Shown piece by piece: positions 16,103 to 60,779 of a stretch of DNA of 64,000 nucleotides (the stretch's first letter is position 1; the number at the start of each line of letters is the position of its first letter). Location of the stretch: the IMG/VR virus record IMGVR_UViG_3300035185_000025, positions 1 through 64,000 of that record; one strand, 5' to 3'. Origin of the DNA: a virus. The position numbers and the translations under genes are program-made. The notes below the pieces were generated by a model, which made no database searches, was not told where the DNA came from, and was given only the letters and a program-made list of their open reading frames with translations.

Positions 16103-17013
16103 ACCAGCTCGAAGTCGCCGCTGGCCGTGTGCTTCGAGCCCGGCCCCGCGGCGCCGCTGACAGCCGAGTAGACGTTCGTGGGCGCAGGAGGCAGCGCTTG
16201 ATTGATGCCGCGCGCGACCGCGTCGACACCGATGATCCAGGCCCAGAACACAGGATCGATCGCGACGTTGGACTGGAACAGATCCTTCGCGCGGACGATC
16301 CCGTCGTCGTTGCCGACGTAGGGCGTCTGCGCCGGAGGCTGTGGCGCCGGAGGCACGTACGGCGTCGGCACGTACGGGACCGCAGGCACGCCAGGGATCT
16401 CCTCGCCGCCCGGAGCCGCGGAGCTACCGATCGGCGGTGTGATCGGCTTGGCTCCGAGGTGCGTCGTGCCGTCGAGGTGGATCGCGCCGGCGGTCGCCTT
16501 CAGGTGCAGGCCGGCGCCCGCCCAGATGTTGATGTCGGCGTCGTTGGTCTGGATCGCGAGCATGCGCCCGTTTTCCAGCCTGACGAATCGCCACGTCGCC
16601 CCTGGCACGCGCACGCCCTTCTCGGTCGCAGCCCCGGCGCCGGTGAGAACGCCGGCCACGCTCGACGGTGCGGGCTCGAGCGCGCTGTTGAGCACGCCGA
16701 CGATGATCGCCGCGTTGGGTTCGCCTTCCGGGAACGCCAGCGCGACCTGCTGGCCCTCGACCAGTTCGCACTCGCACCCGAGACGCGCGCAGATCCGGTC
16801 CTCGTCCTTGAGCGTGACCTCGACGAGCAGTTCGCCCTGCTCCCACCGAAGCCACGCGGGCGTGCCCTCTGGCAGCGAGGTGCGGCTGTCGGCGTAGCCC
16901 ACCGTCCCGATCCCGGTCTCGATCAGCGCCGGCGGTGCGCCGTTGCGGTTCTGCCGCGCGGGGTCGGACGACATCCTCGGGGCGGGGCGCTTGAACTTGA
17001 TCGGGACAGCCAT
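16099..17013 (-). CDS. baseplate spike (gpV/gp45-like)
   Basis: GQQVALAFPEGEPNAAIIVG OB-fold pattern; follows the hub gene. Confidence 0.7.
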   Translation of the reverse strand: MAVPIKFKRPAPRMSSDPARQNRNGAPPALIETGIGTVGYADSRTSLPEGTPAWLRWEQGELLVEVTLKDEDRICARLGCECELVEGQQVALAFPEGEPNAAIIVGVLNSALEPAPSSVAGVLTGAGAATEKGVRVPGATWRFVRLENGRMLAIQTNDADINIWAGAGLHLKATAGAIHLDGTTHLGAKPITPPIGSSAAPGGEEIPGVPAVPYVPTPYVPPAPQPPAQTPYVGNDDGIVRAKDLFQSNVAIDPVFWAWIIGVDAVARGINQALPPAPTNVYSAVSGAAGPGSKHTASGDFELV

Positions 17014-17050
17014 GCGGGAAGCTTACCCGGCGCGCGCAGGTAGTCCGGCC
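17011..17050. promoter_or_regulatory. nested divergent promoters (class B -35 lies inside the class A -10/start window)
   Basis: CATGCGGGAAGCTTA; same geometry at 24097, 34180, 35272 and inverted at 60603. Confidence 0.75.
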
Positions 17051-17233
17051 ATGAAGATCACCGTCATCCCCACCACAGAACAGATCGCCGCAGCCATCGC
17101 TCACGTCTGGGGCTGCACGCTCGCCGACGTCACGATCAGCGAGTCCGGCGCGGTCGAGATCGAGACCTCGCTCAAGGGCGCCCAGAAGGCCGACCGCATC
17201 ATCGGAAAGGTCGAGAAGGGCGCCGCAGGATGA
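17051..17233 (+). CDS. hypothetical protein
   Basis: class B start MKITVIP. Confidence 0.6.
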   Translation: MKITVIPTTEQIAAAIAHVWGCTLADVTISESGAVEIETSLKGAQKADRIIGKVEKGAAG

Positions 17234-17523
17234 GCCGGCGAAAGGAGATCGCGGACGCGTTACGGCGATCGGCATGCACACTCGACCCGCACTCCCCGGA
17301 CGTGGATCGGCTCATGTCCGGGCTCATCCAGTACGCCGAGAGCCAGGATGCAGTCGAGCGTGGTCCCTGGATTGCGGACGCACTGGACCGCGCGTCCGAC
17401 GAAACGGAGGCGTCAATAGCTGACGTTCCATGGTGGTGGTGGGTTGAAAAACGGCAAGCGCGAATCGCTGTCGGATACATGCGGACGCTCGCTCACTACA
17501 TCCGAAATCCCAGCGACGACTAG
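17230..17523 (+). CDS. hypothetical protein
   Basis: ATGA coupling; CTAG stop overlap. Confidence 0.55.
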   Translation: MSRRKEIADALRRSACTLDPHSPDVDRLMSGLIQYAESQDAVERGPWIADALDRASDETEASIADVPWWWWVEKRQARIAVGYMRTLAHYIRNPSDD

Positions 17524-19412
17524 CGAGGCACCGTGATCCCCGTGCGCGTCTCGGTCACCTGGATCGAGTCGCGCACGTCGAGGAAGTTCACGGCCTGGAT
17601 CGCCGCGTCCCACCCGTCGGTGACGGACCAGGTCCACGTGACGATCCGAGTCCTGAACTCGCGCTGGATGTACTGAGTCGATGCTGCCGCCGCGTACTTT
17701 GCCGCGACGTCGATCGGCAGCCCGGCCAGCCGCGCCTGCTCGAGCTTCTCGAACTGCCCGCCCTCGGCGAGGATCAGCGCGGTCGAGATCAGCCCGCTCG
17801 CCGGATCATGCGGAGGGATCTCGACGGCGATCGGATCGCGCGGGCGCAGGGCGAACAGGTCTCCGATCACGCCGGCCTGAAGGTTCTCGGGCAGCGCCGA
17901 GAGCACCGGCGTCCGGATCGAGACGACAAGATCCCCGCGCGAGAGTTGCTCGTAGACCGAGGCAGCCGCCCGGGTGAGCGCGGACACGATCGCGTCCGGC
18001 GAGCCTCCGGTGATCGAGTCGAGGTTCACGACCTTGATCTCGTCTCGGTCGCCCTGGCCTGTTGGGCTCGGCCTGCCGTTGCGAGCGAGCGGTGGCCACG
18101 TACCGGAGTAGCGGATCCCGGTCGCCGTATCGAAGCCGCGGATCTGGATCGTCGGCACCGCCGTGCCCTTGAGCGAGCGCTCGAACGTGATCTCCTCCGC
18201 GTTGCCGCCGTGGACGAACACCCGCGTCGAGGTCGGCGGCGGGAAGATGTCTCCGGCGGTCGTCGATGCGCGGTAGTAGTTGCGCGGGTTCGTGATCACG
18301 ATCTCCGACGCGGTGAGGAACGGATCCCGCGGCAGCCTGACGTCCACGATGTAGCCGGCGCTGTATACGAGCTCGGTGATGAAGTCCCAGTAGCTCACCT
18401 TCTGGCGGTTGCCCTTGCTCTTGCGGCGGCCTCGCTTCGCAGCCCCTCGCGAGTCGACCCACTGCTTGGGCCTGATCTCGTCGATCGTCGGCAGCAACTC
18501 GGGCACGCCGGGTGCGGACTGGACGTCGTTGAAGACCCGCATGCCGCGGAAGCCGGGGAGGCCGAAGCGGCGTGACGCCGGCGGTAGCGCGGAGCCAGAT
18601 TGCTTGAGCCCGTTCGCCTGCTGGCGGAGCGCCTGCGCCTCGGCTCGCGCAGCGATGGCGCCCGCGTCGTTGCCGTCCGCAGCGAGATCAGCAGCCTCGG
18701 CGTCCTTCGCTCGCGCGTCCTTCAGGAGCCGCCTCCTACCGCGTCCAAGCTCGCGCGTCTTCTGCTCGTTGAAGCGCTTGTCGACGGACTCGGTCTGCGC
18801 GAGCGCGTCGCCGGTGAGCAGGAGTTGGATCGCCTCGTCGAGTCGAAGGAAGCCCGGCAGATCCTCGAGCATGTTCGGCGGGATCTCGGCGTCGAGGAGC
18901 TCGCCCGTCAGATCCCGGCCTTCGATCTCGACCACGTGCTCGCCGATCTGGATCCCATGCTTGTCGGCGAAGCCCCGGATCAGCTCGTTGCTGACGCCGC
19001 CGAAGCTCGTGGGGACGCCGGTGAGCGGGGACGGGACGTCCGGCAGGTAGAGCGCGTCGGCGTCGGGCGCCTGGCCTGCGGCGTACTCGGCAGGCGTGAA
19101 GACGCCTCCGAAGATCTGCACCGTCATCGCCCGGATCAGCCGCGGATCGAACGGCAGCCGCGCGAGCGGGATCGAGACCTTGAATGTGTCCGCCTTGCGG
19201 TAGTTGTTCAGCTCGAGCGTGCAGGTCTCGGGCACGATGTCGTCGCCGAGTTGGACGAAGGTCGACGCGAGCGCGGCGAGGGTAGGCGCGCCGAAGGACT
19301 CGACCCCGCTCCCGGGTGCGGTCGGCGACGGGACCGGTGGCGCGAACGCCTGCGCCTGGTCCTCGAACCGGACCTTGATCCTGACCTTGCAGCCGACCCA
19401 GTACTGCGTCAT
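17520..19412 (-). CDS. baseplate hub (gpD/Mu gp44-like)
   Basis: LNNYRKADTFKV, IRGFAD, VEIEGRDLTGELLD; class A TACACT-N6-ATG. Confidence 0.75.
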   Translation of the reverse strand: MTQYWVGCKVRIKVRFEDQAQAFAPPVPSPTAPGSGVESFGAPTLAALASTFVQLGDDIVPETCTLELNNYRKADTFKVSIPLARLPFDPRLIRAMTVQIFGGVFTPAEYAAGQAPDADALYLPDVPSPLTGVPTSFGGVSNELIRGFADKHGIQIGEHVVEIEGRDLTGELLDAEIPPNMLEDLPGFLRLDEAIQLLLTGDALAQTESVDKRFNEQKTRELGRGRRRLLKDARAKDAEAADLAADGNDAGAIAARAEAQALRQQANGLKQSGSALPPASRRFGLPGFRGMRVFNDVQSAPGVPELLPTIDEIRPKQWVDSRGAAKRGRRKSKGNRQKVSYWDFITELVYSAGYIVDVRLPRDPFLTASEIVITNPRNYYRASTTAGDIFPPPTSTRVFVHGGNAEEITFERSLKGTAVPTIQIRGFDTATGIRYSGTWPPLARNGRPSPTGQGDRDEIKVVNLDSITGGSPDAIVSALTRAAASVYEQLSRGDLVVSIRTPVLSALPENLQAGVIGDLFALRPRDPIAVEIPPHDPASGLISTALILAEGGQFEKLEQARLAGLPIDVAAKYAAAASTQYIQREFRTRIVTWTWSVTDGWDAAIQAVNFLDVRDSIQVTETRTGITVPR

Positions 19413-19435
19413 GGGCGGAGTGTAGCGCGGCCGGT

Positions 19436-19882
19436 GGCGCGCACCTCAGATCGGGAAGCGATCGTGTCTCGCGTCGGTAGGGGTAGACATGTTCACATCC
19501 CTCTACATCAAGCTGACCACCGAGAACGATGACGGGTATGTCGAAGTCTCGCGCTGGGATGGCGTCGACCCTGTCGAGCCAGGTGACCTCCTCACGATCC
19601 ACGGTCCAGGTGCCGGTATGGTGACCGATATGGTGACCGCCAAAATCGACGCTCGTCGATGGGGTGTCCAGCGCGGCGACCGGGTTCGCTCACTCGAACT
19701 CTACGCGCATCTCGTTCGCTTCGACGGGACGCCTGGCGACATCCCTGCCGACGAAGCGGTGCAGATCGTGCGCCGAGAACTTGCGGCGTCAGGCGACGAC
19801 GCCGAAACGATCGACGACGTGATGGAGAGCGATTTCTCGAAGATCGTGTTGGACAAGCGGTAACCGCGGCGCGCACCTCAGA
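19436..19882 (+). repeat. 15-bp direct repeat at 19436-19450 and 19868-19882 flanking a promoter+gene cassette
   Basis: GGCGCGCACCTCAGA exact twice. Confidence 0.9.
19489..19863 (+). CDS. hypothetical protein (moron-like cassette)
   Basis: class B motif 19453-19488. Confidence 0.7.
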   Translation: MFTSLYIKLTTENDDGYVEVSRWDGVDPVEPGDLLTIHGPGAGMVTDMVTAKIDARRWGVQRGDRVRSLELYAHLVRFDGTPGDIPADEAVQIVRRELAASGDDAETIDDVMESDFSKIVLDKR

Positions 19883-19919
19883 GGTTGCGCCGTCGGCCTG
19901 TCCGCGCGAGCCTGGTGCG

Positions 19920-20787: not shown

Positions 20788-20802
20788 TCCGGGGCTCGAT
20801 GG

Positions 20803-21196: not shown

Positions 21197-21198
21197 CG

Positions 21199-21917: not shown

Positions 21918-22177
21918 GAAAGCCCCTCAATCATGTCCTCGATGAGCGGCATCCCGGAGTCGACAGCCTCTCGCTTCATGATGCCTAGTCGCCTCGCCGC
22001 CTCCGCGCGGTCTTCTTCTGGGACTAGATCGATGACGCGTGCGAGTGCCCACAGACGACCGTCCCAGAACCCGTCGGTGAACGCGTCGTCGCGGCCGAGG
22101 CTGTACTTGGACGCCTTGACTGCCCATGCTCCGTGCGCCGTTGTCTTTGCGCTCGATAGATCTTTGTTTTGCAGCAT
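21914..22177 (-). CDS. hypothetical protein
   Basis: class B start MLQNKD. Confidence 0.6.
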   Translation of the reverse strand: MLQNKDLSSAKTTAHGAWAVKASKYSLGRDDAFTDGFWDGRLWALARVIDLVPEEDRAEAARRLGIMKREAVDSGMPLIEDMIEGLS

Positions 22178-22246
22178 GGTCGAACTACCGCGCCGGCGGC
22201 TGGCCGCTTCCCGGAAGCGTTCGCGCTCGCCGTCGGTAGGGTGGTC
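22178..22246. promoter_or_regulatory. bidirectional class B promoter pair, palindrome CGCTTCC-C-GGAAGCG (22205-22219)
   Basis: GGAAGC-N16-GGTAG-N7-ATG on both strands. Confidence 0.75.
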
Positions 22247-22534: not shown

Positions 22535-22537
22535 TCC

Positions 22538-22948
22538 ATGTCGCTGGCCGACACGCTACGAGCAGACGCAGCCGAGGTCCTCGACGCGATCACGTCCGCG
22601 CCGGACGGCTTGACGGTCCGCGAGATCACGTACTCGACCACGATCCGCCAAGGCCGCGCACGCGAAGCGCTGGCCTATCTGCTCGGCGCGTCGGCGGTCA
22701 CGTGCGCGACGGAGCCAGGCCGTGGCGCCACCGTCAGCGGCACGAAGGGACCGGCGCAGGTCTGGCGCGTGGCTGAGCCGGGCTCGCTGCCGCCGTTCGA
22801 CCACGTCTACGCCGCGATCGAGGACGTGCAGGAGACCCTCGGCGAGGTCTGGGCCAGCGCTCCGAGCGGGCTTCGAAACCGGATGGAGTGCTGCATGGCC
22901 TGGCTCGGGCGCGCGATCAAGCGCATCGACGGCGAGCCGGTCGACTAG
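22538..22948 (+). CDS. possible winged-helix DNA-binding protein
   Basis: VLDAI...GLTVREI...AREALAYL pattern. Confidence 0.5.
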   Translation: MSLADTLRADAAEVLDAITSAPDGLTVREITYSTTIRQGRAREALAYLLGASAVTCATEPGRGATVSGTKGPAQVWRVAEPGSLPPFDHVYAAIEDVQETLGEVWASAPSGLRNRMECCMAWLGRAIKRIDGEPVD

Positions 22949-24099
22949 TTGATCGCCGGCACCCGCACCAGAGTCCCGCGCGGCACCGTGTCGCTGTAGA
23001 AGCCGTTGTAGTTCGAGATCACCGTCCACTGCGTCGGATCCCCGTAGTTCTCCGAGGCCACGTCGCGCAGGCTCGTCAGCGTGTCAGCGAGGAACGTCGA
23101 GAGGATCTCGGTCCCCTCGAACAACTCGAGGAGCCGCTGCTGCTCTGCCGCGAACGCAGCGAGTTCCTGCAGCCGTTCGCGCAGCAACGACTCGATCAGC
23201 GCCGCGTTCGCCGTGGCCGAAGGCGATCCGACGAGCGAGGCGTCTCCTCGGGCTGATCGGATCTCGGAGATGTCCTGCAGCAGCCCCCGCGCGGCGAGAC
23301 GGATCAGCGCGAGCTGTCCCTGGATCGTCGAGAGCAGATCCTGAGGCACCGACGCGATCGAGACGATCCCGCGCAGCGCTTCGATGATCCCGACGATCAG
23401 CGCGCCGATCGTGGTGATCGCTGCGACGAGCCGGCGAACGAATGCGTTCGGCTGTCGCAGGCTCAGCAGCGCTTCGATCACGGCGAGGATCGTGGCCAGG
23501 ATCGCAGCGAGGCCGGCCGCGACGCTGAGCGCGTTGAACTCGACGAAGCGGCGCACCGGGCTGAACTCGGTGACGCCGCTCCACTCGAACTCGAGCTCGA
23601 ACTCGACGTCGCTGATCCGCAAGAACCGCGGCGTGAAGCGCTTGATGATCCCGTAGCGGACGTATTGATCCCACGTCACGCGGACCTTCTGCTGGTCCGT
23701 GGTCATCAGCGTGAGCGCGTCGACGACCACGCGCGCAAGCTGGGCGGGCTGCGACGACGGGAACACGGCGGTCGTGACGAAGGTGCCGCCGGCAGCGACG
23801 CCGGACTGCGGGATCCCGGCGCCGCTGACCTGCGGGAACCCGACCAGGTCGACGCCGTTGCTCGCCGTGTTGCTGAGCAGGAAGCGGTCCTTCCACATGC
23901 CGGTGAGCACGGTGTTGCTCAGCATCGAGCCGAGCACCTGCTGCGTCGCCACGGGGTTCGCGGGGAGCCAGGTCTGCTTGGTGCGGATCTCGACGCCGAG
24001 TTCGATCGGCTGGTAGGGCAGGCCGCGGCCCTTGAAGATCATCAGCCGGCGCGGGCCCGTGACCTGCTCGATCGTCAGCGGCGAGGCGTTGCTGGGCAT
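22945..24099 (-). CDS. tail tube initiator/baseplate protein with C-terminal LysM-like (gpX) domain
   Basis: SLRDVASENYGDPTQWTVISNYNG...GTLVRVP; downstream of tape measure. Confidence 0.75.
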   Translation of the reverse strand: MPSNASPLTIEQVTGPRRLMIFKGRGLPYQPIELGVEIRTKQTWLPANPVATQQVLGSMLSNTVLTGMWKDRFLLSNTASNGVDLVGFPQVSGAGIPQSGVAAGGTFVTTAVFPSSQPAQLARVVVDALTLMTTDQQKVRVTWDQYVRYGIIKRFTPRFLRISDVEFELEFEWSGVTEFSPVRRFVEFNALSVAAGLAAILATILAVIEALLSLRQPNAFVRRLVAAITTIGALIVGIIEALRGIVSIASVPQDLLSTIQGQLALIRLAARGLLQDISEIRSARGDASLVGSPSATANAALIESLLRERLQELAAFAAEQQRLLELFEGTEILSTFLADTLTSLRDVASENYGDPTQWTVISNYNGFYSDTVPRGTLVRVPAIN

Positions 24100-24213
24100 G
24101 CGGGAAGTCTACGCGACGAGCGGCGGTATGGCGGGCATGAGCCACAACAATACGCTCGCAGCGGCCTGCGGCCTGTTCGACCGTGACACGAACGCTGCTC
24201 TTGAGGTGGATGC

Positions 24214-24471
24214 GTGAGCTATCGAAGCCTCTCCGTCGTAGAGAAAGCGTATCCAGAAAGCGAGTGCTGGCGATGCGATCACGGTATCGACGAAGGTATC
24301 GCCGTGCGCTGCGCGATCTCACCTCGGTTCAGCATCGATGAGCCGGCGTGGACGGCCTGGTACAGGCGCGCTGATGCGAAGCGATGTGTCGATTTCGAAC
24401 CGAACTGGTGGGTTCGCCTGCGCGTGAAGGCGAGGCGATGGCCCATGTTCGTCGTGACGCAGGATCACTAG
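24214..24471 (+). CDS. Cys-rich hypothetical protein (preceded by 26-aa ORF 24137..24217)
   Basis: CWRC...C...CVDFEP; class B motif at 24102. Confidence 0.55.
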   Translation: MSYRSLSVVEKAYPESECWRCDHGIDEGIAVRCAISPRFSIDEPAWTAWYRRADAKRCVDFEPNWWVRLRVKARRWPMFVVTQDH

Positions 24472-27017: not shown

Positions 27018-27766
27018 CTACCCCTTCGAGGACGCATCGTTGCGCCGCGAGCAGGCGTCAGCCCAGCGGCACAGATCCTTGATCGGGTGACGGTCGCACT
27101 CGGTCGGCGACCAGCCGCACTCCTGCCCGAGGTAGCTGTACAGATCCGGCAACTGCCCGTCGAACGCGGGCCCGAGGTTGCCCGAGCACGCGATGATCCA
27201 CAGGCACCAGATCCGCTCGGAGAAACGCGCGCGCCTCACCCCCCGACCCATTGCCTTGAGGCGCGCAGCGATTCCCCCTCCTCCTCCGTCGGCATGATCA
27301 TCTCGACGAACAGGCTCGTCACCATGGTCTGCGCCTTCGGGGTGAGCCTGTGCCACCAGGGGCTCACGTCGCTGGTGCTGTCGGCGGGCATCAGCACGGG
27401 CTTGCCGTTGGCGTCGCGCGCGAGCTTCCCGGTCTGCTGATCGAGCACGCCGAGCGCGGCGATGAAGTTCTTGGCGCCGTCGGAGAAGTCGGTGCCGGCC
27501 TTGACGAGCTTGCGGACCTCGCCGCCGTTCGGCTCCCACATGCCGAAGGCCCGGTCTGCGTCGGAGCCGGTCCAGTTCATCGACTGCACGATCGACTCCG
27601 GGAGCTCGAGCGACCAGTAGCCGCGCGTGGGCTTCGGCGGCGCGTCGCGGATCATGCGACCGAGATCGCCGGGGGCTCCGGTCTGGACTTGTTGCTGTTG
27701 CTGGGACGCGGGCGCGGACATGAAGCCGCCCTGGTCCCACATCTGCTTTGGCTGGTGGTCGGACAT
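27018..27766 (-). CDS. tail assembly chaperones gpG (27236..27766) and gpGT via -1 frameshift
   Basis: Slippery G GGG GAA at 27272-27278; -1 frame open to 27018 (GWSPTE motif); upstream of tape measure. Confidence 0.8.
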
Positions 27767-27811
27767 GGCGCGAGGGTAGCACCCGCACGGGTGCGCGAGT
27801 AGAGTGGAGCC

Positions 27812-28180
27812 GTGACCGTCCGAACCCGCATCGCCAGCGACCTCCGCGACTCCGGCGAGATCGAATCCGAGGCCGCGATCCTCGTGACCACGGACAAGGT
27901 GATCGTCGCCGCCAGCGAGGCCGAGGCGTTCAAGCTGTGGATCGCGCTCACGGCCTACCTCGCGGAGAGCCTCAAGCCGTCGCGGCAGTGGCAGGCGCTC
28001 CACGTCGCGCTCGCGCATGGCCTGGCGGCCGAGAACGCCGACGCGCAAGCGCAGGCCCAGCCGGACTACACCAGCGCCTCGACGGTGCTGGAGATGGTCA
28101 AGGAGATCGCGGGCGCCGACGTCTACGCGAAGGTGCGCCAGGGGATCGTTGACCGGATGCTCGGGCGGTCGGGAAGCTGA
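27812..28180 (+). CDS. hypothetical protein
   Basis: class A TAGAGT-N6-GTG. Confidence 0.6.
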   Translation: MTVRTRIASDLRDSGEIESEAAILVTTDKVIVAASEAEAFKLWIALTAYLAESLKPSRQWQALHVALAHGLAAENADAQAQAQPDYTSASTVLEMVKEIAGADVYAKVRQGIVDRMLGRSGS

Positions 28181-30530: not shown

Positions 30531-33074
30531 TCAGGCGGCTTCTTGGCTTACGACGACGGTGGGTCCAACGGTGGTCTCGAACACGATCGCCTCGGCGACG
30601 GCGTACATGCGGACCTCGACGACCAAGCGGAGGATGCTCGGCACGGCCGGGTCCGTGGTGTCGGTGACGCTGAATGCTTCGAGCCGACTCGCGCTCGGGT
30701 TGCCGGGCGAGGCGAACAGTTCGAGCGTCCCCTCGACCTGGCTGATCAGATCCCGGCGAAGCTGCGGCGTGATGATCTTGTTGCCGAACGGCACCGCGAT
30801 AATGAACAGCGTGTCGTTGATGAAGTCGGCGAAGGCTCGGCGGTTCGCGGCCGTGCGACCCGGGTTGGTCACGCGGTCGACCGAGGTCACGTCGTCGACC
30901 CAGCCGGCGCCGGCATTCCTGTCGACCTTCGGTGCCGAGATGCCCTCACGCTTGAAGCGCTGATAGTCCCCGACCTTCAGCTTGATCGAGCCCTCGCTCA
31001 ACGGGTTGTAGGCGTCTTCGAGCCCGGCCACGTCGAGCTTGCCGAAGTTGGTGCCGCGCTGATCCTCGGCGGCCGACTGCTCGGGGTTGATGATCGACCG
31101 GATCGCCGCGAGCCAACTGTCGGAGTGGACGTTGACCACGCCGTCGTCAGCGAAGCCGATGCCGCCGACAACCCCGGTCTCGCGGATCTCGGGAACGGCG
31201 GTGAGGAAGCCGGGGAACGGCACCTGCACGCGCTCCTCGCGAAGCGCCACCGCCCAGGCGACCGCGTCGTCGCGGCTCACCCCGATCCGCGGGCTCGAGT
31301 AGCCGGTCCGGCCTGCGCTGCCCGACGCGGTCGCCGTTCGGCAGTTGGCCGCGATCTCGTCGCGGATCACCGAGGAGCTGCGCGCCGAGAAGATCCGGTT
31401 GATCTCGTTGGCTGGAGGCGCGTCGACGACGGTCTCGCGCAGGGCGGTGACGTAGCGGTTGTCGAGCTGCGCCGCGGTCAGGCGCGTGATCGCGGCCGGG
31501 TTGCTGACCGCGAAGCCGCCGGGCAGGTCGGACAAGATCACGGTGACGTCGGTCGCCGAACTCGCCAGCGCGGTGTCGGTGTCGAGGTAGGGCCGGACCT
31601 TCGCGGTGAATGGCCCGCCGCCGGTCCCTGTCGAGACGTCGCTGAGCGTGATCCAGATCGTCGCGGTCGCGGTCGAGTCCTGCACCCGCGTGCCGGCCGG
31701 GATCGTGATGTCGGCCCCCTCGTCGGCGCTGACCACCGTGGTGGTGTCGAAGCCGAGAGCGGTGAGCCAGGTCCCGGAGCTGCCCTTGATCGAGCCGGTG
31801 ACCGGCGTGAGCTCGTTGCACACGCGCAAGGTGCCGTCGCTGTTGATCGCCGCTCCGAGGTTGCCGACGGCGTCGATGATGTCGACGGCCTCCTGCGTGC
31901 TGATCTGCTGGTCATCGCCGACGTTGCCGGTGCCGTAGACCTCGAGCGCGACGCCGGGGACAGTGTTGAGGATCGTCAACTCCGCGCCGCCTTGCAGGGC
32001 CGTGATCGCGGTGAGGATCTGGTTGTCCTCGCCCGTGATCGTGATCGTGTCGATCCCGGTGGCCGCGAAGCCGAAGCCTGGCACGCTCAGTTGCGCGAGT
32101 TGGGGCGGATCCGTGATCGCGTCGCTGAGCAGCTTGTCGCGCTTGAGCGTCACGCTGCCGACGGGCCCGAGGAACGGCGCGGTGTCGTAGTCCGTGGCCA
32201 CGCCGTTGACGATCCGGCTGACCCGGACCTCGGTCGTGATCGCCGTGTCCGCGATGACTTGGATCGTCCACACGTCCTGCACGACGGCCGTGGGCAGGCC
32301 GAGGACCGCGAGCGCAGTGCCTCCGACGATCTGGAACCGTGCCCGCGCGCCGGACCGGACCGAGCGCAGATCCAACTGGCCGCCGTTGTCGGAGGCGATC
32401 GTGGTCGCGACCTTCGCGTTGATCCGGTCGATGACGTTGGCGAGCGTGGTGTCCGTGTCCGTGAACGTGATCGTCTGCGCGTCGGTGGAGAGCATGTCGT
32501 CCCACGCGACGAGCAGCGTCAGGCCGTCGAGCGCTCCTGGGGCGAGCGGGTAGACGACGCCGGACGCGAGGATGTTGGCCTTGGCCGAGACGACCGTCGC
32601 CGTCGCGGTCGTGGGGCCGCCGTTCAGCTCGAAGACCGCCGTGTCGCCGTTGGCTGCCGCGTACGGGCCAGCGTCGCCGTTGAGGCATGCGAGCCGCGAG
32701 AACTCGACCGAGCCCGCGGAGTTGTCGACGCGCATGATCACGAGCCGCCCGAAGGGCTTGTTCACCAAGGCGATGAACCCGTTCCCGTTCCAGGGCTCGG
32801 AGCCGCCGGACTGCTGGGCGACGGGGCCCGCGTGGAGGTTGCCGCCTACCGACCAGCCGAGGCCGCCGAAAGTGCGCTCCCGATCCGTGGGACCGAAGAC
32901 CTCGGTGGGCGTCAAGACCGGCCCGCGCTCGAACTCGCCGACGACGCAGACGGTGCCCGCGCCCGCGCCGAGCACGAGTGCAGGCGGTGCGCGATCGATG
33001 ACCGCAGTCTGTGAGACCGAGAGAAGCTCGGCCTGGCCAGGATCTTGGAGATAGACTCGGCGGAAGGCGACCAC
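30531..33074 (-). CDS. tail sheath protein
   Basis: VVGEFERGPVLTPTEV N-terminus; ANRRAFADFI C-terminus; class A TGATACCCT-N6-GTG. Confidence 0.9.
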   Translation of the reverse strand: MVAFRRVYLQDPGQAELLSVSQTAVIDRAPPALVLGAGAGTVCVVGEFERGPVLTPTEVFGPTDRERTFGGLGWSVGGNLHAGPVAQQSGGSEPWNGNGFIALVNKPFGRLVIMRVDNSAGSVEFSRLACLNGDAGPYAAANGDTAVFELNGGPTTATATVVSAKANILASGVVYPLAPGALDGLTLLVAWDDMLSTDAQTITFTDTDTTLANVIDRINAKVATTIASDNGGQLDLRSVRSGARARFQIVGGTALAVLGLPTAVVQDVWTIQVIADTAITTEVRVSRIVNGVATDYDTAPFLGPVGSVTLKRDKLLSDAITDPPQLAQLSVPGFGFAATGIDTITITGEDNQILTAITALQGGAELTILNTVPGVALEVYGTGNVGDDQQISTQEAVDIIDAVGNLGAAINSDGTLRVCNELTPVTGSIKGSSGTWLTALGFDTTTVVSADEGADITIPAGTRVQDSTATATIWITLSDVSTGTGGGPFTAKVRPYLDTDTALASSATDVTVILSDLPGGFAVSNPAAITRLTAAQLDNRYVTALRETVVDAPPANEINRIFSARSSSVIRDEIAANCRTATASGSAGRTGYSSPRIGVSRDDAVAWAVALREERVQVPFPGFLTAVPEIRETGVVGGIGFADDGVVNVHSDSWLAAIRSIINPEQSAAEDQRGTNFGKLDVAGLEDAYNPLSEGSIKLKVGDYQRFKREGISAPKVDRNAGAGWVDDVTSVDRVTNPGRTAANRRAFADFINDTLFIIAVPFGNKIITPQLRRDLISQVEGTLELFASPGNPSASRLEAFSVTDTTDPAVPSILRLVVEVRMYAVAEAIVFETTVGPTVVVSQEAA

Positions 33075-33086
33075 GAGCAGAGGGTA

Positions 33087-33299
33087 TCAGCCTCGCTGGC
33101 CGCGCGCGAGATCAGGCGTCGGGATCGCCTGGACCTCGGCTCGCATCGCATCCACCTCTGCCACCAGCGCACAGAACATCCTGTGCATGTCTGGATTGAA
33201 GCCCCAGCCAATCCCAGAATTCTGCGCGGACGCGATGGTGCGCGCCTGGTCAAGTTCTGCGGGCGTCATCCGTACGGGAGGATTGATCAACTGGCTCAC
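33087..33299 (-). CDS. hypothetical protein
   Basis: ORF between neck genes and sheath. Confidence 0.45.
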   Translation of the reverse strand: MSQLINPPVRMTPAELDQARTIASAQNSGIGWGFNPDMHRMFCALVAEVDAMRAEVQAIPTPDLARGQRG

Positions 33300-33306: not shown

Positions 33307-34182
33307 CTACCCGACCGGGTCCTGCCCGCTTCCCGCGACCGAGACGACCGACGAGATTCCGACCGTATCCACGCGCCCTGGCGACCACACGAGCTCGACG
33401 TGCGGCACCTCGGCGAGCACCGAGACGTCGAGGACCCACTCGTTCCCGCGCGCGCCTTCTTCTGCGTCCGGCCTCGACGTGCTCTGGATCGTGTAGCGGA
33501 TCACGCGCGAGAAGTATTCGGGCAGGATGATCCGCCGGCCGCACTTGTCGTCGTGCCGCTCGGCCGCGAGCAACTGCGCGACCCTGGCCTCGAGACCGCG
33601 GCGCTGATCCTTGTGCGCCGTCCAGAAGATCAGGCGCAGCGGGATGATCTGGTCGTGGCCGAGGTAGCGCAGGAGCGTCTCCGGGTAGAAGCGATCCGCG
33701 GTCTCTTCGAGGATCCGCGCGCCGCGGCCGGATGGCTCGAAGACGGCGTCCTCGACGCTCGTGATCAGGGCCGTCTGCGCCGGCATCGACTCCTGCTCGG
33801 ATCGCGGCCAGTCCAAGAACACCCGCGTGAGCGGGTGGACGCTGACCCGGGCCTGCGGTGCGCCGTCCTTGGCGAGCGCTTCGAGGTCGACGCTGTGCCA
33901 GCGCAGGCCCTCGATCAGACGGTACAGCCCGAGCATGGCCGCGTCGCGGGGCGCGAGCGTCAGGACCGGCGGCCCGTCGAAGGGGAACGACGCCGACCGG
34001 AGCTCGCTCGGGTACCTGCCGATCTGCGTGGCCGAGTTGAGCGTCGCGGTGCCGTCGAGGTTGCGCAGGATCTCGACCTCGTAGACGTTCTCAGGAAGCG
34101 CTCCGCCGGATGGTCGCGGTGGCTGGCCTGCGGTCGGGATGTCGGCGCACAGGCTGTCGGGATCGAACTGGCGATCGTTCAT
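33307..34182 (-). CDS. putative tail terminator/completion protein
   Basis: position upstream of sheath; class A start MNDRQF. Confidence 0.6.
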   Translation of the reverse strand: MNDRQFDPDSLCADIPTAGQPPRPSGGALPENVYEVEILRNLDGTATLNSATQIGRYPSELRSASFPFDGPPVLTLAPRDAAMLGLYRLIEGLRWHSVDLEALAKDGAPQARVSVHPLTRVFLDWPRSEQESMPAQTALITSVEDAVFEPSGRGARILEETADRFYPETLLRYLGHDQIIPLRLIFWTAHKDQRRGLEARVAQLLAAERHDDKCGRRIILPEYFSRVIRYTIQSTSRPDAEEGARGNEWVLDVSVLAEVPHVELVWSPGRVDTVGISSVVSVAGSGQDPVG

Positions 34183-34221
34183 GCGGGAAGCGTACACGCG
34201 GCCACGCGGTAGAGTCAGGTG

Positions 34222-34473
34222 ATGGCCACGAACGAAGACGAGCGCACCGACGTTTTCGACCCCAAGACCGGGATGTTCTACGACTCAGCGGACGGACCGC
34301 CTGACCCGGAGTCGGCTCAGGCCAAGGCGTCACGCAAGCGGCGCGCGCCAGTTCCCAAGCCGGCGATCGCCCCCGTCGACAGCCGCAGCTACAAGTACCC
34401 GGACGTCGCCCGCGTCGGCCCCGTGCGCTCGGGCAGCCTGCGCGAGTTCGAGGACGAGGAGCCGACGTCGTGA
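34222..34473 (+). CDS. hypothetical protein
   Basis: both class B and class A motifs upstream. Confidence 0.6.
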   Translation: MATNEDERTDVFDPKTGMFYDSADGPPDPESAQAKASRKRRAPVPKPAIAPVDSRSYKYPDVARVGPVRSGSLREFEDEEPTS

Positions 34474-34739
34474 GCGCATTGATCCGAGCGCGGGCGCGCT
34501 TGCCGATCCGTCGAGTTGATGATGCCTGCCGATGTGAGCCCGGAGACGATGTCTACATTGAGGCCGACGCTCCGTGCGGGTTGAAGGTCTGGATGCGATC
34601 GCCCGGATGCGTCGGCGGAACGCCTGGCCATGGCTGGGGCTTCGCTAGCATGGTCCCGATCGATGCGATCGCGGCGTACGGTGATCTTCCCGAGCAGACT
34701 CCATTCGGGATCCTTCGACCGATGACGGTGCCGGCGTGA
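34470..34739 (+). CDS. hypothetical protein
   Basis: GTGA coupling. Confidence 0.5.
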   Translation: MSALIRARARLPIRRVDDACRCEPGDDVYIEADAPCGLKVWMRSPGCVGGTPGHGWGFASMVPIDAIAAYGDLPEQTPFGILRPMTVPA

Positions 34740-34764: not shown

Positions 34765-35274
34765 TCACCCCTTCGAGCGCCGCGCCGCCCGGTCGATCGA
34801 GCGCTGCATCTGCAGGCTGATCTCCAGCGGCAGGCGCTTCGCCACGAGCGGCATCGTCCGGCGCAGCACGTAGCGGCCCTTGGTGCCCTTGCGCCCGATC
34901 TTGCGCTGGATCGCTACCGCCACGCGCACCGCCTTCGAGCCCTTGGCGAGCCGCTTGATCCGCACCCACTCGATGATCGACTTGAGAGGCGGCCGCTTGC
35001 CCGGCCGGCGCCCGACCTCGACGAAGATCGAGTGGCGCGCCGTGTTCGTGAGGACCGCGCCGTCCGGCACCTTGATCACGGTGAAGCTGCGCTCGTAGGT
35101 CCCGGTGGCGCGCGGGCGGTATGGCTTCGACTTCGCCGAGACCTTCACGGCCTGCGTCGCGCCGTAGCGAGCGGTCTTGCGGAGGGCTCGGATCACGCCG
35201 GCGTCGAACTGCCTGGCCAGCGTTCGGACGGCCGGCCCGAGTTGCTTCGGGTTGCGCAGCTTGATCGTGGTCAC
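34765..35274 (-). CDS. neck/tail completion protein (HK97 gp10-like)
   Basis: TGTYERSF...HSIFVEVGRRPGKRPP...IGRKGTKGR. Confidence 0.75.
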   Translation of the reverse strand: MTTIKLRNPKQLGPAVRTLARQFDAGVIRALRKTARYGATQAVKVSAKSKPYRPRATGTYERSFTVIKVPDGAVLTNTARHSIFVEVGRRPGKRPPLKSIIEWVRIKRLAKGSKAVRVAVAIQRKIGRKGTKGRYVLRRTMPLVAKRLPLEISLQMQRSIDRAARRSKG

Positions 35275-35312
35275 GCGGGAAGCGTAGCGCGGCTCCGGCG
35301 GTAGGGTCCGGC

Positions 35313-35630
35313 ATGACCAGCAAAGCGAAGTCCAAGAAGATTCTCGTCGCCCGTATCGTCACCGCGATAATTTCGTTTCCCTACGCCGCATGGGTCGCAT
35401 CGCTCATGTGGGGCTGGTTCGTCGTACCATTGGGCGTGAGTCAGATCGGCATGTGGCACGCCGGTGGCCTCGTGCTGTTCATGACGTGGCCTTCTGCGTC
35501 GGCCGCCGTCGCACTGGTCGATCTAGGCCGCAAAGAGGATGAGATCGACGACCTGGCAAAGTCACTTGGCGCCCTGTTCGTGCCGACGATCATGTTGGCG
35601 TTAGGGTACGCATATCGCCTGTTCATGTAG
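35313..35630 (+). CDS. multi-TM membrane protein
   Basis: MWGWFVVPLGV; three hydrophobic segments; class B start. Confidence 0.7.
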   Translation: MTSKAKSKKILVARIVTAIISFPYAAWVASLMWGWFVVPLGVSQIGMWHAGGLVLFMTWPSASAAVALVDLGRKEDEIDDLAKSLGALFVPTIMLALGYAYRLFM

Positions 35631-35631
35631 A

Positions 35632-36315
35632 TCAGGCCAGCAGTACCGCGTCCTCGAACACCTCGTCATCGACGACCACGGTCTGATCGACGAGATCCTC
35701 GCGCCGGTAGCCGGACTGCGTGGTCAGCCGCACGCGCCACTCGTTCGAGTCCAAGCGAAGCACCGGCGCACCGGCGAGTTCGAATCGATACGTCCGCGGC
35801 GTTCGATCTGCCGGACACATGCCGATCGCCTGCACCTCGTAGAAGAACTCGCGCGTCGCCGTGTCGTCGCCCCACGGCTCGCCGTTGCGGTAGCCGCGAA
35901 GCGTCCAGTCGTCGACCTGCAACGGGCTCACCTCGCGCAGGTTGACCACGCCGTCCGGCTTGCGAGCGGCCTGCTCGACGATGAGTTCGACCGCGTCCAG
36001 ATCTCGAAGCTCGACCGGCATCAACTCGAGCGAGGCGTCCTCGGACCAGGTCCCGGAGATGTCGTCCTGCACCTGCCACACGAGCCGCACGCGGTACGGG
36101 CGTTGCCCGATCTTGTGGATGGCCAGGCGCGCGCGGTCGATCGCCTTCTGGCGGCGCAGCGCTGGCGTACACGCGAGCAGGTCGATCGCCGGCGGCGTGT
36201 TGCTCGGCGCGACGGGGAAGTCAGGCCCGCGACCGGGCGGGCAACTCGACGGGCTCGCCGTGGGGACGCAAGAGCAGGGCTTGCGCGAGCATGATCCGCA
36301 GACGGCCATGGCCAC
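35632..36315 (-). CDS. putative head closure/stopper protein
   Basis: synteny between adaptor and neck gene. Confidence 0.55.
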   Translation of the reverse strand: MAMAVCGSCSRKPCSCVPTASPSSCPPGRGPDFPVAPSNTPPAIDLLACTPALRRQKAIDRARLAIHKIGQRPYRVRLVWQVQDDISGTWSEDASLELMPVELRDLDAVELIVEQAARKPDGVVNLREVSPLQVDDWTLRGYRNGEPWGDDTATREFFYEVQAIGMCPADRTPRTYRFELAGAPVLRLDSNEWRVRLTTQSGYRREDLVDQTVVVDDEVFEDAVLLA

Positions 36316-51269: not shown

Positions 51270-51773
51270 TCACGGCACTCCACAGCGCCCGCGTAGACGC
51301 TCTGGACCTCGACGAGGTTTCGCGCCTCGTAACGCGTCACAGCCCGCCACACGAGCTCGTGGGCCACGACAGCGCTGACCTCCGGCGAGCAGAAGGCCGG
51401 ATCGGCGTCGGCGCCCCACTTCCCGGCCTGCCAGCGGAGCGAGAGGCCGTAGGCGCCGAGCCCATCCTCGCGCCCGAGCACGTCCTCCCCGCGCACATGG
51501 CGGACGCTGGCCTCGCCGCAGAACGCCTCGCGGCAGACCACGAGCGCGTGGAAGGCGGCGATGATCGGCGAGACGCCGAGGGCTTCGGTGGTCGCGGTGA
51601 CGCGTGCGGTCCTTGGCCTCGCGCGACCAGGGAACACGGGGCTCGTCACGGGCGTCGCAGTAGTCGCCTGGCACGACGCCAGGTGCCGGCGCCGCGCAGG
51701 CGTTGCAGGCGTAGAGCAGCACGAGGCAGGCGATGATCGCGAGGGCTACTCGCAGGCCGAGTCGATCGTCCAT
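51270..51773 (-). CDS. secreted/lipoprotein, possible lysozyme-like transglycosylase
   Basis: signal LAIIACLVLLYAC; VCRE...GLGAYGL pattern; class A TGCTACCCT. Confidence 0.45.
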   Translation of the reverse strand: MDDRLGLRVALAIIACLVLLYACNACAAPAPGVVPGDYCDARDEPRVPWSREAKDRTRHRDHRSPRRLADHRRLPRARGLPRGVLRRGQRPPCARGGRARARGWARRLRPLAPLAGREVGRRRRSGLLLAGGQRCRGPRARVAGCDALRGAKPRRGPERLRGRCGVP

Positions 51774-56521: not shown

Positions 56522-56544
56522 TGCCGCCGTGGTAGCCTGCGCGG

Positions 56545-59270: not shown

Positions 59271-59477
59271 CGACAGGCGCTCCTGGGGCGGGCGTACTTC
59301 TGCGGCTTGCACCCGCACGAGACGTGGTCGATGGCCGTCCGTGAACAGCCCTTGCACTCCAGGCTCCCGTAGTAGGCCCAGCGCGGACCCCATGCCGCTT
59401 CACGACCGCAGTCGGAACATGTCCACTTGCGCACCGCCGCGCCTGCGCTCACGGGGTTTTCGCCGCACGCTGGCTCG

Positions 59478-59690
59478 TTAGAGGCCACCACGCGGCTGTG
59501 GTCGTCGATGGTCTTGTGCGCGCATCCTCGGGAAGTCACTCAGATCCCGCATGGTCGGGTAGCGACATCGTCCTCGCCACACGGTGATGGTGACACCGAG
59601 GCGCGTCCTGATGCGGATCATCTCGTCGGTGCGCTCCACGAGTTCGGCGAGCCCGCGCGCGATCCAGTCCTCGGCAGTGGACCAACTCAC
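59478..59690 (-). CDS. hypothetical protein
   Basis: GTGA coupling, VSWSTAEDW. Confidence 0.4.
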   Translation of the reverse strand: MSWSTAEDWIARGLAELVERTDEMIRIRTRLGVTITVWRGRCRYPTMRDLSDFPRMRAQDHRRPQPRGGL

Positions 59691-59763
59691 GGTGCGTCGC
59701 TCCGCGCTGTCTTGTCCTGCGGATAGGCCGGGTTGTTCTCGACGGCGGCGTCGGTGCGGAGGG

Positions 59764-60576
59764 TCATGGCGTGGGCTCCGTATCGGGCTCCTGCGGCGGG
59801 ACAAGCCGAGGGCCCCAGGCCAGCCCGTCGATGCTGTAGCCGTTCGTCATCAACTGGCCGTCGGGTCCACGATAGACCTCGGCGGGCGCCCAACTCCACG
59901 CGCGGTCGTCGAGGCCACGGATGCGGCGCCAGTAGAGCCCGGGAACTGTCGGGGTAGTCTCCACCTCCTCGCAGGGCCGCTTCGCTTCGGCTACGCGGGC
60001 GAGCAGGGCGTCACGCTCACGGGTGAGCCGATCGACGACGTCGCGCAGGCTGGTGAAAGCGGCGTGAGCGTCCGCCACCGCTGCGCCCATGTCGAACGGC
60101 GTGCCGTCGCCGTACTCCCACTCGGATGGGTCTGGCCGCCCGGACCACAGGGCCAGGCACCACAGCGCGATCTCGCCGGTCGCCGTGCGGCCGGGCGTCA
60201 GGCGACCGCGGACCCGGCTGGGCCGCTCGGCGAGGCGGGCCTCGGCGTCCTCGACGTAGCCCTCGAAGTTGGCTGCGGTCATCGCGTGGGCGCCCTCCTC
60301 GTCGGCGAGGGCTGCGGTGAGCCGCTTGACCTCGGCTCGCAGCCTGGTCACGACCTCGCCTCCGTGCTCGTAGACAAATGCGTTGGCGGACCAGTCCTCC
60401 TCGTCGACAGGCCCATTGTCGATGTTGACCACGACGCGTGCCCCGCAGCCCGGGCAGTAGTCCTCCTCGCCGTCTGAATAGCGATCGGCGTCGCGCCTGA
60501 AAACGCTCTCACCGCAGGCGTCGCACTCCAAGCCAAACGGTCCGGAGACATCGGGTTGAACTGGTGAATCGGCCAT
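59764..60576 (-). CDS. zinc-ribbon plus coiled-coil protein
   Basis: CDACG...CPGCG; class B start MADSPVQ. Confidence 0.7.
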   Translation of the reverse strand: MADSPVQPDVSGPFGLECDACGESVFRRDADRYSDGEEDYCPGCGARVVVNIDNGPVDEEDWSANAFVYEHGGEVVTRLRAEVKRLTAALADEEGAHAMTAANFEGYVEDAEARLAERPSRVRGRLTPGRTATGEIALWCLALWSGRPDPSEWEYGDGTPFDMGAAVADAHAAFTSLRDVVDRLTRERDALLARVAEAKRPCEEVETTPTVPGLYWRRIRGLDDRAWSWAPAEVYRGPDGQLMTNGYSIDGLAWGPRLVPPQEPDTEPTP

Positions 60577-60614
60577 CGTCGGGCCTACTCGCGCCGCCGG
60601 TGTACGCTTCCCGC

Positions 60615-60779
60615 GTGCCATACCGCGACGACCGCCCGCGCTGCCCGACCTGCGCCGAGCCGGCCGAAGGCTACGACGCGATGTGGGACTACCACCGCTG
60701 CCCGAACGGTCATCGATGGGACGGGCCGGTCAACGGTGGCCCGCCCGTCAGCCGCTCACAGGACGGCAGCAGGCGGTGA
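60615..60779 (+). CDS. small zinc-finger protein
   Basis: CPTC...CPNGH; class A TACGCT-N6-GTG. Confidence 0.6.
   Translation: MPYRDDRPRCPTCAEPAEGYDAMWDYHRCPNGHRWDGPVNGGPPVSRSQDGSRR

Follow-up and report, generated by a model that had tools for sequence, protein, structure and literature searches.

The window analysed here is the first 64,000 nucleotides of an 81,566-bp virus record from IMG/VR (IMGVR_UViG_3300035185_000025; G000 below), a phage genome that CheckV rates as 97% complete and that has a GC content of 62-70%. It contains five short junctions, called nests below, at which a virion gene on one side and a backward-facing accessory unit on the other start away from each other, and at which promoter-like signals for the two genes are written over one another on opposite strands. 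The nests share the pattern CAYGCGGGAAGNNTA, which matches the window exactly five times, at 17011, 24097, 34180 and 35272 on the plus strand and at 60603 on the minus strand. The pattern occurred in none of 100 dinucleotide-preserving shuffles of the window, the other 17.5 kb of the record hold no further copy, and a reversed-pattern control gave zero matches. A first-pass annotation of this DNA had described one 15-nucleotide geometry repeated at these five positions, and that description is borne out. In every case the complement of the motif's CAY serves as start codon for a long open reading frame (ORF) with a high GC content at third codon positions (GC3 0.87-0.96; 304, 384, 291, 169 and 54 amino acids), and in every case an ORF on the opposite strand begins 39-42 nucleotides from the first base of the motif. 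Each site is an intergenic gap of 36-38 nucleotides between divergent start codons.

In the following list, class A denotes the signal that points to the virion gene (a -10 element alone, TANNNT) and class B the signal that points to the accessory unit (a -35 element GGGAAG and a -10 element GTA(G/T)). Positions are those of the window.

17011..17053, both strands: nest 1 junction, start codon to start codon
17025..17011, minus strand: nest 1 class A, -10 TAAGCT 17025..17020, ATG 17013..17011
17016..17053, plus strand: nest 1 class B, GGGAAG 17016-17021, GTAG 17040-17043, ATG 17051-17053
16099..17013, minus strand: A1, 304 amino acids, baseplate spike (gpV)-like as a lead only, putative leaderless start, GC3 0.89
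17051..17523, plus strand: B1 accessory unit, a 60-amino-acid ORF (17051-17233) and a 97-amino-acid ORF (17230-17523) with an ATGA overlap
24097..24139, both strands: nest 2 junction
24111..24097, minus strand: nest 2 class A, -10 TAGACT 24111..24106, ATG 24099..24097
24102..24139, plus strand: nest 2 class B, GGGAAG 24102-24107, GTAT 24126-24129, ATG 24137-24139
22945..24099, minus strand: A2, 384 amino acids, tail-tube-initiator/LysM-like as a lead only, GC3 0.92
24137..24471, plus strand: B2 accessory unit, a 26-amino-acid ORF (24137-24217) and an 85-amino-acid ORF (24214-24471) with a GTGA overlap, GC3 0.70-0.72
34180..34224, both strands: nest 3 junction
34194..34180, minus strand: nest 3 class A, -10 TACGCT 34194..34189, ATG 34182..34180
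34185..34224, plus strand: nest 3 class B, GGGAAG 34185-34190, GTAG 34209-34212, GTG 34219 (ATG 34222)
33307..34182, minus strand: A3, 291 amino acids, virion-module protein without a family match
34219..34739, plus strand: B3 accessory unit, an 84-amino-acid ORF (34219-34473) and an 89-amino-acid ORF (34470-34739)
35272..35315, both strands: nest 4 junction
35286..35272, minus strand: nest 4 class A, -10 TACGCT 35286..35281, GTG 35274..35272
35277..35315, plus strand: nest 4 class B, GGGAAG 35277-35282, GTAG 35301-35304, ATG 35313-35315
34765..35274, minus strand: A4, 169 amino acids, neck / tail-completion protein (HK97 gp10-like), phrog_5 E=2.6e-9
35313..35630, plus strand: B4, predicted membrane protein of 105 amino acids, phrog_2169, 1e-5
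60574..60617, both strands: nest 5 junction, in mirror orientation
60603..60617, plus strand: nest 5 class A, -10 TACGCT 60603-60608, GTG 60615-60617
60612..60574, minus strand: nest 5 class B, GGGAAG 60612..60607, GTAG 60588..60585, ATG 60576..60574
60615..62692, plus strand: A5 unit, a zinc-ribbon-like ORF of 54 amino acids (60615-60779) and a MuF-like ORF (60776-62692) with a GTGA overlap
59764..60576, minus strand: B5, accessory protein of 270 amino acids with a Cys-rich N-terminus, weak profile matches only

The class A signal belongs to a family that extends beyond the nests. When the 0 to 39 nucleotides upstream of called starts were scanned, TAnnnT was found exactly 6 nucleotides before the start codon in 19 of the 104 called genes, against 0-4 genes at other distances, and the same peak is present in two relatives, G001 (22 of 114 genes) and G002 (12 of 105), where other distances reach at most 5. 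Addition of three starts that the gene caller had mis-set (34182, 60615, 33074) brings the class A heads of G000 to about 22. They include the baseplate wedge, portal, terminase and neck genes, the MuF unit and other tail-module genes, and most of their -10 elements end in CT (TAGACT, TACGCT, TAGCCT, TACCCT). In all five nests TANNNT stands 6 nucleotides before a purine start codon. The A starts lack a Shine-Dalgarno sequence, the upstream sequence reading CTTCCCGN / CTTCCCGC, and over the genome Shine-Dalgarno-like motifs precede 6 of 39 leaderless-type heads versus 22 of 65 other genes. Between 16.5 and 36.4 kb no TTGACA/TATAAT-type promoter was detected (0 TTGACA-type promoters versus 1.2 expected). 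In Mycobacterium tuberculosis, mapped promoters are described as carrying TANNNT 7-12 bp upstream of the start site with no -35 motif, and 26% of genes as leaderless (PMC3898074); as judged from sequence, the class A geometry matches such mapped actinobacterial housekeeping promoters with leaderless messages. Promoter letters appear to be used twice at another class A head as well: at 33074-33110, on the minus strand, the stop codon TGA of a class-B-driven ORF of 70 amino acids doubles as the TGn of an extended -10 (TGATACCCT-N6-GTG) that belongs to the following 847-amino-acid virion gene.

The class B signal is also widespread. GGGAAG-N18-GTAG is present in 25 strict copies in G000 (22 in the window), as against 0.18 expected and a maximum of 2 in 100 Markov simulations, and these numbers uphold the previously proposed family with GGGAAG, GTA(G/T) and a downstream ATG. 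All 25 copies combine the exact 18-nucleotide spacer with an RTG 6-9 nucleotides past GTAG; in full, the layout is GGGAAG-N18-GTAG-N7-ATG, resembling the promoters read by extracytoplasmic function (ECF) sigma factors. The GGAAG and N18 of such promoters are found in 25/25 strict copies, the -10 being GTA(G/T) and not GTT. Relaxation of the -35 and -10 letters gives 34 sites in G000, and away from the nests the -35 extends to C-GGGAAG-C, with C at -36 in 33/34 and C at -29 in 32/34, counts that exclude copies whose start lies 8-9 nucleotides after GTAG (filtered out). Class B elements stand in front of the plus-strand operons at 37.7-50 kb (ResIII/DEAD helicase, DnaB-like helicase, PDDEXK nuclease) as well as of small accessory ORFs set backwards among tail genes. 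Class B heads non-virion genes and class A virion genes, so the two classes plausibly differ in timing; the division into a virion and a non-virion class made earlier is reasonable, as a division by gene position rather than by measured timing. Palindromic back-to-back class B pairs (CTTCCC-n-GGGAAG) occur at 2097-2175, 22175-22245 and 63918-63991, where they would drive divergent genes about 70-77 nucleotides apart.

At the nests the two families are superimposed. Counted from the start codons, the class B -35 GGGAAG occupies -8 to -3 of class A and the class B -10 GTAG about -30 to -27, at 5/5 sites, and the opposite strand of the class B -35 reads TAnnCT-TCCCGN-RTG. The class B -35 is indeed, as had been proposed, written into the -10/start window of a virion promoter, with complete overlap in all five cases. 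In this register the final CT of TAnnCT is complementary to the final AG of GGGAAG. The 6-nucleotide discriminator would be made up of TCCC, a fifth letter set by the conserved -36 C on the other strand, and a free sixth base, which is C, G or A on the class A strand (G, C or T on the class B strand); the virion start codon would then lie one base past the edge of the class B promoter. The nest is the closest packing possible. By reasoning from the two consensus sequences, these appear to be superimposable in one register only, and this would account both for the fixed 15-mer and for the presence of TA after GGGAAG only where a start codon abuts.

That last association can be counted. Relaxed class B sites were sorted according to whether TA stands at +3/+4 after GGGAAG and whether CAY stands 2-3 nucleotides upstream of GGGAAG. 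The numbers with both, TA only, CAY only and neither are 5/0/3/26 in G000 (n=34; Fisher 2e-4) and 5/0/2/21 in G001 (n=28; Fisher 2e-4), and they become 5/0/1/22 and 4/0/2/18 when sites with a weak or absent accessory ORF are dropped. Over both genomes, TA is found at 10/10 sites with an abutting start codon and at 0/52 of the remaining relaxed class B sites. In both genomes these tests reject the idea that TA and CAY fall together by chance. A promoter for a single-subunit phage polymerase, spanning the whole 15-mer, was likewise rejected: no such polymerase was found, and the motif splits into two independent families. Taken as sequence families, both motifs behave like promoters from which leaderless messages would start. 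Another divergent module of fixed sequence, CTTCCCGCGTGGTA(G/A)CCT-N6-RTG, is found on the minus strand at 8985-9004, 10428-10447 and 13433-13452. In that module the class B -35 directly adjoins the extended -10 of a tail or baseplate gene (TGG-TAGCCT), which leaves about 53 nucleotides between the start codons; CACGC precedes GGGAAG as in the nests, but the GTG there is not a start codon.

The genes flanking the nests are known with differing certainty. The neck label of A4 stands on its phrog_5 match, and the Pfam HK97-gp10_like match is slightly under its cut-off. The spike and LysM tube-initiator labels of the first-pass annotation are Atlas leads only: A1 has a weak match to DUF6484 in a profile search and a lead to Phage_base_V clusters at 0.92, A2 has leads to LysM/DNA_circ_N clusters at 0.95-0.96, and neither gave anything significant in Pfam, PHROGs or PDB sequence searches; A3, too, has no PDB sequence match. 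A3 is 52% identical to its ortholog in G001, which itself heads a nest. The MuF label depends on a Pfam MuF match (E=6.7e-5) under cut-off, and the GTG at 60615 starts not the MuF-like ORF but the 54-amino-acid ORF (CPTC...CPNGH), the true first gene behind nest 5 and putatively leaderless; the G001 nest leads straight into MuF and has no zinc-ribbon-like ORF. In the C-terminal half of the MuF-like ORF (61600-62692), GC3 drops from about 0.9 to about 0.5 and an HEFSHG (HExxH-like) motif appears, and GC over 62-64 kb is only 0.62; this half looks like a recently acquired fused domain. A Pfam search with it and with four other proteins gave no family, and ten accessory ORFs gave no Pfam or PHROG family.

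The phage encodes a candidate reader for class B. An ECF-type sigma factor of 170 amino acids lies outside the window, at 68736-69248 of the genome (Sigma70_r2, E=7e-15; TIGR02937 sigma70-ECF, 62 bits with a cut-off of 42.9), and shares its operon with genes for a UvrD-like helicase and a DNA methylase. The divergent ECF sigmas of G000 and G001 both score above the TIGR02937 cut-off and have the sigma-4 stretch TTxNTIxGRTSRSRI in common. The sigma of G002 is SigH_actino-like (E=3.7e-53, under the equivalog cut-off) and has a different sigma-4 region; the G000 sigma is not a SigH equivalog. Class B co-occurs with the divergent ECF sigma in G000 and G001 and is absent in G002, and the reader of class B is probably the ECF sigma that the phage itself encodes. 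The sequence GGAATA-N15-GGTT-N9-10-ATG defines a third class of putative leaderless promoters, with 2 copies in G000, 4 in G001 and 8 in G002 where about 0 are expected; both G000 copies are on the minus strand, at 71474-71450 of the genome, which is outside the window, and at 21147-21123 of the window. In G000 and G001 this class heads the operon of the UvrD-like helicase, phage ECF sigma and DNA methylase. It matches actinobacterial SigH promoters as described in PMC10012870, but with a spacer one base shorter. These patterns are most simply explained if the third class is served by a SigH-type sigma, class B by the phage sigma and TAnnnT by the host sigma-A.

Conservation could be followed in G000, in G001 and in one 2.2-kb metagenome contig (L040). 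G001 (IMGVR_UViG_3300017971_000026; 84,078 bp with terminal repeats) encodes proteins mostly 50-70% identical to those of G000 and carries 26 strict class B copies and five nests. Four of its nests are orthologous to nests of G000, namely those at A2, A3, the neck gene and the MuF unit, and in all four the accessory genes are unrelated; the A2, A3 and neck orthologs are 49-60% identical, and the MuF pair was matched by N-terminal likeness only. In L040 the nest is kept, with a neck protein 80% identical. When the 11 nests (five from G000, five from G001, one from L040) are aligned, C-GGGAAG, TA and GTA are invariant and the spacers differ. An identical 27-mer, which takes in the spacer that varies elsewhere, is found in two non-orthologous G001 nests (11126-11153, before the A2 ortholog, and 51330-51357, before MuF; loci L176 and L178), and this suggests recent copying or gene conversion of a promoter module. 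The fifth G001 nest has a 7-nucleotide discriminator and lies at the ortholog of the 227-amino-acid gene 35632-36315, where an accessory gene precedes; in G000 this gene is operon-internal and un-nested. That it is nested only where an accessory gene precedes suggests that the presence of a nest is linked to accessory insertions. The first-pass annotation had named conservation with different passenger genes as a check, and the geometry is so conserved at four orthologous junctions; it is not at the A1 ortholog, and one G001 nest has no counterpart in G000.

The more distant G002, a genome of 89,353 bp whose proteins are about 30-57% identical, lacks class B altogether (0 copies). It carries GTAGACT-N5-6-RTG on many virion genes, the A3 ortholog there is operon-internal, and in one case two -10-only promoters are packed in a 38-nucleotide gap; G000 and G001 each have one A/A pair with a 45-nucleotide gap. 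Because G002 packs two -10-only promoters without class B, tight packing of divergent leaderless promoters is general in this phage group, and the class B overlay is specific to the lineage of G000 and G001. Searches of IMG/VR with the nest pattern gave 4 stretches, the G001 locus being the sole relative among them, and with a looser pattern 84, where again relatedness was confined to G001 loci; a related-locus search with A3 alone found none, and one with an alignment of two neck proteins found G001 only. Among GenBank phages, megablast with 10 kb of G000 gave no match, tblastn with its terminase gave at most 29% identity (to T7-like and other terminases), and tblastn with A2 gave nothing. 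A search of sequencing runs for the phage found three wetland-metagenome DNA runs and no RNA run.

Elements that might bind a separate regulator were also sought. The palindrome GCA(C/A)C-N6-G(G/T)TGC is found 6 times in G000, 7 times in G001 and 17 times in G002, against about 0.5 expected. The G000 copies are listed here.

19873, 27779, 45953, 52331, 54938 and 63933: palindrome 16-mers

The palindrome adjoins a promoter element in 5/6 copies in G000 and 6/7 in G001, typically 2-5 nucleotides upstream of a class A -10, as at the terminase promoter (54968), or within the spacer of a class B promoter; it is a candidate operator, and a separate DNA-binding regulator is probably involved. One such copy lies inside a spacer of the back-to-back class B pair at 63.9 kb. 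Another lies exactly between two -10-only promoters that occupy a 45-nucleotide gap at 27766-27812 (TACCCT-N6-ATG and TAGAGT-N6-GTG), a layout repeated in G001 at 14897-14943. None of the 6 G000 copies is in a nest. Within the five nests the longest inverted repeats have arms of 4-5 nucleotides, no better than in shuffled sequence, and an operator inside the nests was rejected on the ground that no dyad rises above chance in any of the five. The earlier statement that no dedicated repressor is involved fits the nests, with their lack of a dyad operator, and does not fit other class A promoters, where the palindrome lies on the -35 region.

Convergent gene ends show extreme compaction as well. 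Six convergent gene pairs of G000 overlap by 4 nucleotides and one is 1 nucleotide apart; for example, the end of B1 overlaps that of the convergent virion gene 17520-19412 (17520-17523), and the stop of B4 is 1 nucleotide from that of the convergent gene 35632-36315 (35630-35632). Between 16.5 and 36.4 kb, 6 terminators were found versus 6.9 expected, with no excess between units. Sense and antisense transcripts probably run into each other. Because the accessory units abut the next virion gene and no terminator is detectable, convergent transcription could add further interference.

The explanation that seems to us reasonably probable is that the five sites are dual-coded, fully overlapping divergent leaderless promoters, formed where an accessory unit abuts a virion gene, and that competition between them is a by-product. 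Toward the accessory unit, C-GGGAAG-N18-GTA(G/T)-N6-8-RTG would act as one of about 30 ECF-sigma-type promoters of the phage; toward the virion gene, TAnnCT-TCCCGN-RTG would act as a promoter with a -10 alone, like those read by actinobacterial housekeeping sigmas, and the RNA would begin with the start codon. The two predicted start points would be about 38 bp apart, and each -35 region would lie over the -10 or discriminator of the other promoter. An open complex on the virion side would melt the class B -35, and a class B holoenzyme would sit over the -10 and +1 of the virion promoter. Provided that both promoters are real, mutual exclusion of two holoenzymes at a nest is physically expected, because start points at this distance with overlapping core elements would make simultaneous occupancy impossible. 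The proposition that two polymerases cannot occupy both promoters can be accepted to that extent, as the physics of the geometry; whether they actually compete would depend on occupancy. A heavily used side would depress the other, and the competition may possibly be a local modulator of the five virion transcription units. Where an antisense accessory unit interrupts the virion array, the junction would also let transcription begin anew in each direction.

Several observations weigh against parts of this explanation. In G001 the two elements before the A1 ortholog are arranged differently, the class B -35 lying immediately before the -10 (CTTCCC-G-TAGACT-N6-ATG), and the exact register is therefore not obligatory; the uniqueness of that register is, moreover, argued rather than computed. 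TAnnnT-N6-RTG is found at the aligned start in 6/31 neck-homolog loci, 2 of them nested and 4 without GGGAAG, and is absent from the remaining 25. The sigma factors of G000 and G001 are only 36% identical although their class B consensus is identical. Furthermore, SigH is described as accepting GGAAN, and GGAAG-N18-GTA is near host SigH-type promoters (PMC10012870); because SigH accepts GGAAN, a host SigH-like sigma is a possible reader of class B. Finally, the basal activity of five bidirectional promoters of Escherichia coli was reported as too low for competition, which appeared only when one direction was strongly activated (PMC12825309); overlap is not in itself proof of antagonism.

The last of these reports touches the proposal that the nests merely reflect packing without regulatory effect, both promoters firing too seldom ever to compete, or even positive coupling, in which negative supercoiling left by one departing polymerase would help to open the other promoter and the paired genes would be co-expressed. 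This is unlikely in our estimation, and it does have the compaction of the genome on its side: the 38-nucleotide gap of G002 without class B, the 45-nucleotide A/A pairs of G000 and G001, and the six 4-nucleotide convergent overlaps. A study of ilvYC reportedly found transcriptional coupling of divergent promoters. Against pure packing, the near-invariant class B consensus is typical of strong phage promoters, which makes high occupancy likely during part of the cycle, and with the predicted 38 bp between starts any occupied state would exclude the other. The first-pass annotation had favored an overlay that is itself a selected timing device, in which the class B holoenzyme would occlude late virion promoters and so form a repressor-free, genome-wide early/late switch. 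The complete overlap of the core elements, the register kept at four orthologous junctions despite accessory-gene turnover, the lack of a dyad operator in 5/5 nests, and the placement of class B on helicase, DnaB and nuclease operons and of class A on portal, terminase and baseplate genes all speak for it, and holoenzymes that act as repressors have been documented: the ECF HrpL holoenzyme at a divergent promoter represses hrpL, with ECF holoenzyme footprints reaching about -60 (PMC5263251), and sigma competition at promoter DNA is described for sigma-S (PMC4330354). The distribution of the nests nevertheless speaks against a genome-wide switch, since only 5 of about 22 class A promoters are nested and the 17 un-nested ones include those of the portal, terminase, baseplate-wedge and 847-amino-acid genes. 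A separate regulator is suggested by the palindrome that lies over the -35 region at other class A promoters, the A1 ortholog departs from the register, G002 packs its promoters tightly without class B, and the nest that is present in G001 and absent in G000 tracks an accessory insertion. As a genome-wide design the switch is not supported, and we consider a selected timing device doubtful. A portable variant, which we hold to be no more probable than that device, is that the overlay is a selected, sigma-titrated cassette with which phage-sigma polymerase represses host-sigma virion promoters at accessory insertions. If this were true, five virion units would be held back until the phage sigma was diluted by replication or inactivated, and a dual-coded module of about 40 bp would spread by recombination within and between phages with different passengers.

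Two further proposals deny that one of the two elements is a promoter. If the A side is none, the virion genes would be read from upstream through the antisense unit and the TA would be incidental. Read-through is possible with no detectable terminators (6 versus 6.9 expected), and 25 of the 31 neck relatives have no TAnnnT-N6-RTG; the presence of TA at 10/10 abutting starts versus 0/52 elsewhere, the lack of a Shine-Dalgarno sequence before the starts (CTTCCCGC) and the sharp N6 peak make this proposal very improbable. Least probable of all is the view of GGGAAG-N18-GTAG as a binding site for some other factor or a start-associated translation signal. Some actinophages do carry conserved start-associated sequences of unknown role. 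The two boxes with a rigid 18-nucleotide spacer and a fixed start distance without a Shine-Dalgarno sequence are, however, those of ECF promoters (as described in PMC10012870), class B co-occurs with a particular phage ECF sigma, and the palindromic back-to-back pairs show directionality.

The dual-coded promoters favored here would be a new form of overlapping divergent promoters, and an open-access literature search turned up no account of a phage with a recurring two-sigma overlay. The closest precedents are the bidirectional promoters of E. coli, hrpL/hrpJ and the C-protein/QseC switches. In the bacterial bidirectional promoters described by Warman, Grainger et al. (NAR 2026, PMC12825309), polymerase competition alone can repress one side, and one pseudo-symmetric sigma-70 -10 region serves both directions. 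The nests differ in that an ECF-like -35/-10 promoter would lie over a -10-only type, with predicted starts about 38 bp apart, that both starts would be leaderless, and that the composite recurs at five junctions of one phage genome. At hrpL/hrpJ of Pseudomonas syringae (mBio 2017, PMC5263251), the sigma-54 promoter of hrpL is repressed when the HrpL holoenzyme is bound at the divergent promoter of hrpJ, so that an ECF holoenzyme occludes a divergent promoter of another sigma without a separate repressor. The elements described as occluded there are upstream activator and integration host factor sites, at a single locus and in negative autoregulation; in the nests a class B holoenzyme would cover the -10/+1 core of a promoter of housekeeping type, and would do so at several junctions. 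The C-protein/QseC-QseM switches (NAR 2021, PMC8789080) resemble the nests in their divergent overlapping promoters, one leaderless message and location on mobile elements; in that account the -35 regions overlap and a dimeric DNA-binding protein with dual operators does the switching, unlike the nests, which have no dyad above chance. Phage phi29 switches from early to late at the closely spaced promoters A2b/A2c and A3 (PMC3100819), where p4 and p6 are described as bending the DNA of one control region per genome, and the mechanism set out there involves no second sigma and no superimposed cores.

The individual promoter classes also have known relatives. Class B resembles the SigH/SigE-type promoters of Corynebacterium glutamicum (GGAAT/C-N18-19-GTT; PMC10012870) in its GGAA -35, 17-19-nucleotide spacer and short GT-containing -10, and the rshA promoter given there is GGAAGA-N17-GTT; class B differs in having GTA(G) for GTT, an extended C-GGGAAG-C -35 and putative starts on the start codon. 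Class A resembles the M. tuberculosis leaderless promoters reported by Cortes et al. (2013, PMC3898074), with TANNNT, no -35, a purine start and a pyrimidine at -1; ATG and GTG are both used, and TGN-extended versions are described as stronger. The phage departs from that system in that almost all virion genes or small clusters are each headed by a class A promoter and that, in five cases, the discriminator doubles as the -35 of another promoter.

If the promoters do compete, the nests would provide operator-free opposite coupling of an accessory and a virion gene, with two sigma specificities, in about 40 bp of DNA, and would be relevant to phage gene timing, sigma-factor competition and the design of small synthetic circuits. 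Antisense accessory genes could also enter the virion array without silencing the genes downstream, because the junction would restart transcription in both directions. Even without regulation, this phage group offers a natural example of an almost fully leaderless genome with three sharply defined promoter classes and its own ECF sigma, in which promoter specificity and the co-evolution of sigma factors with their promoters become directly testable in vitro.

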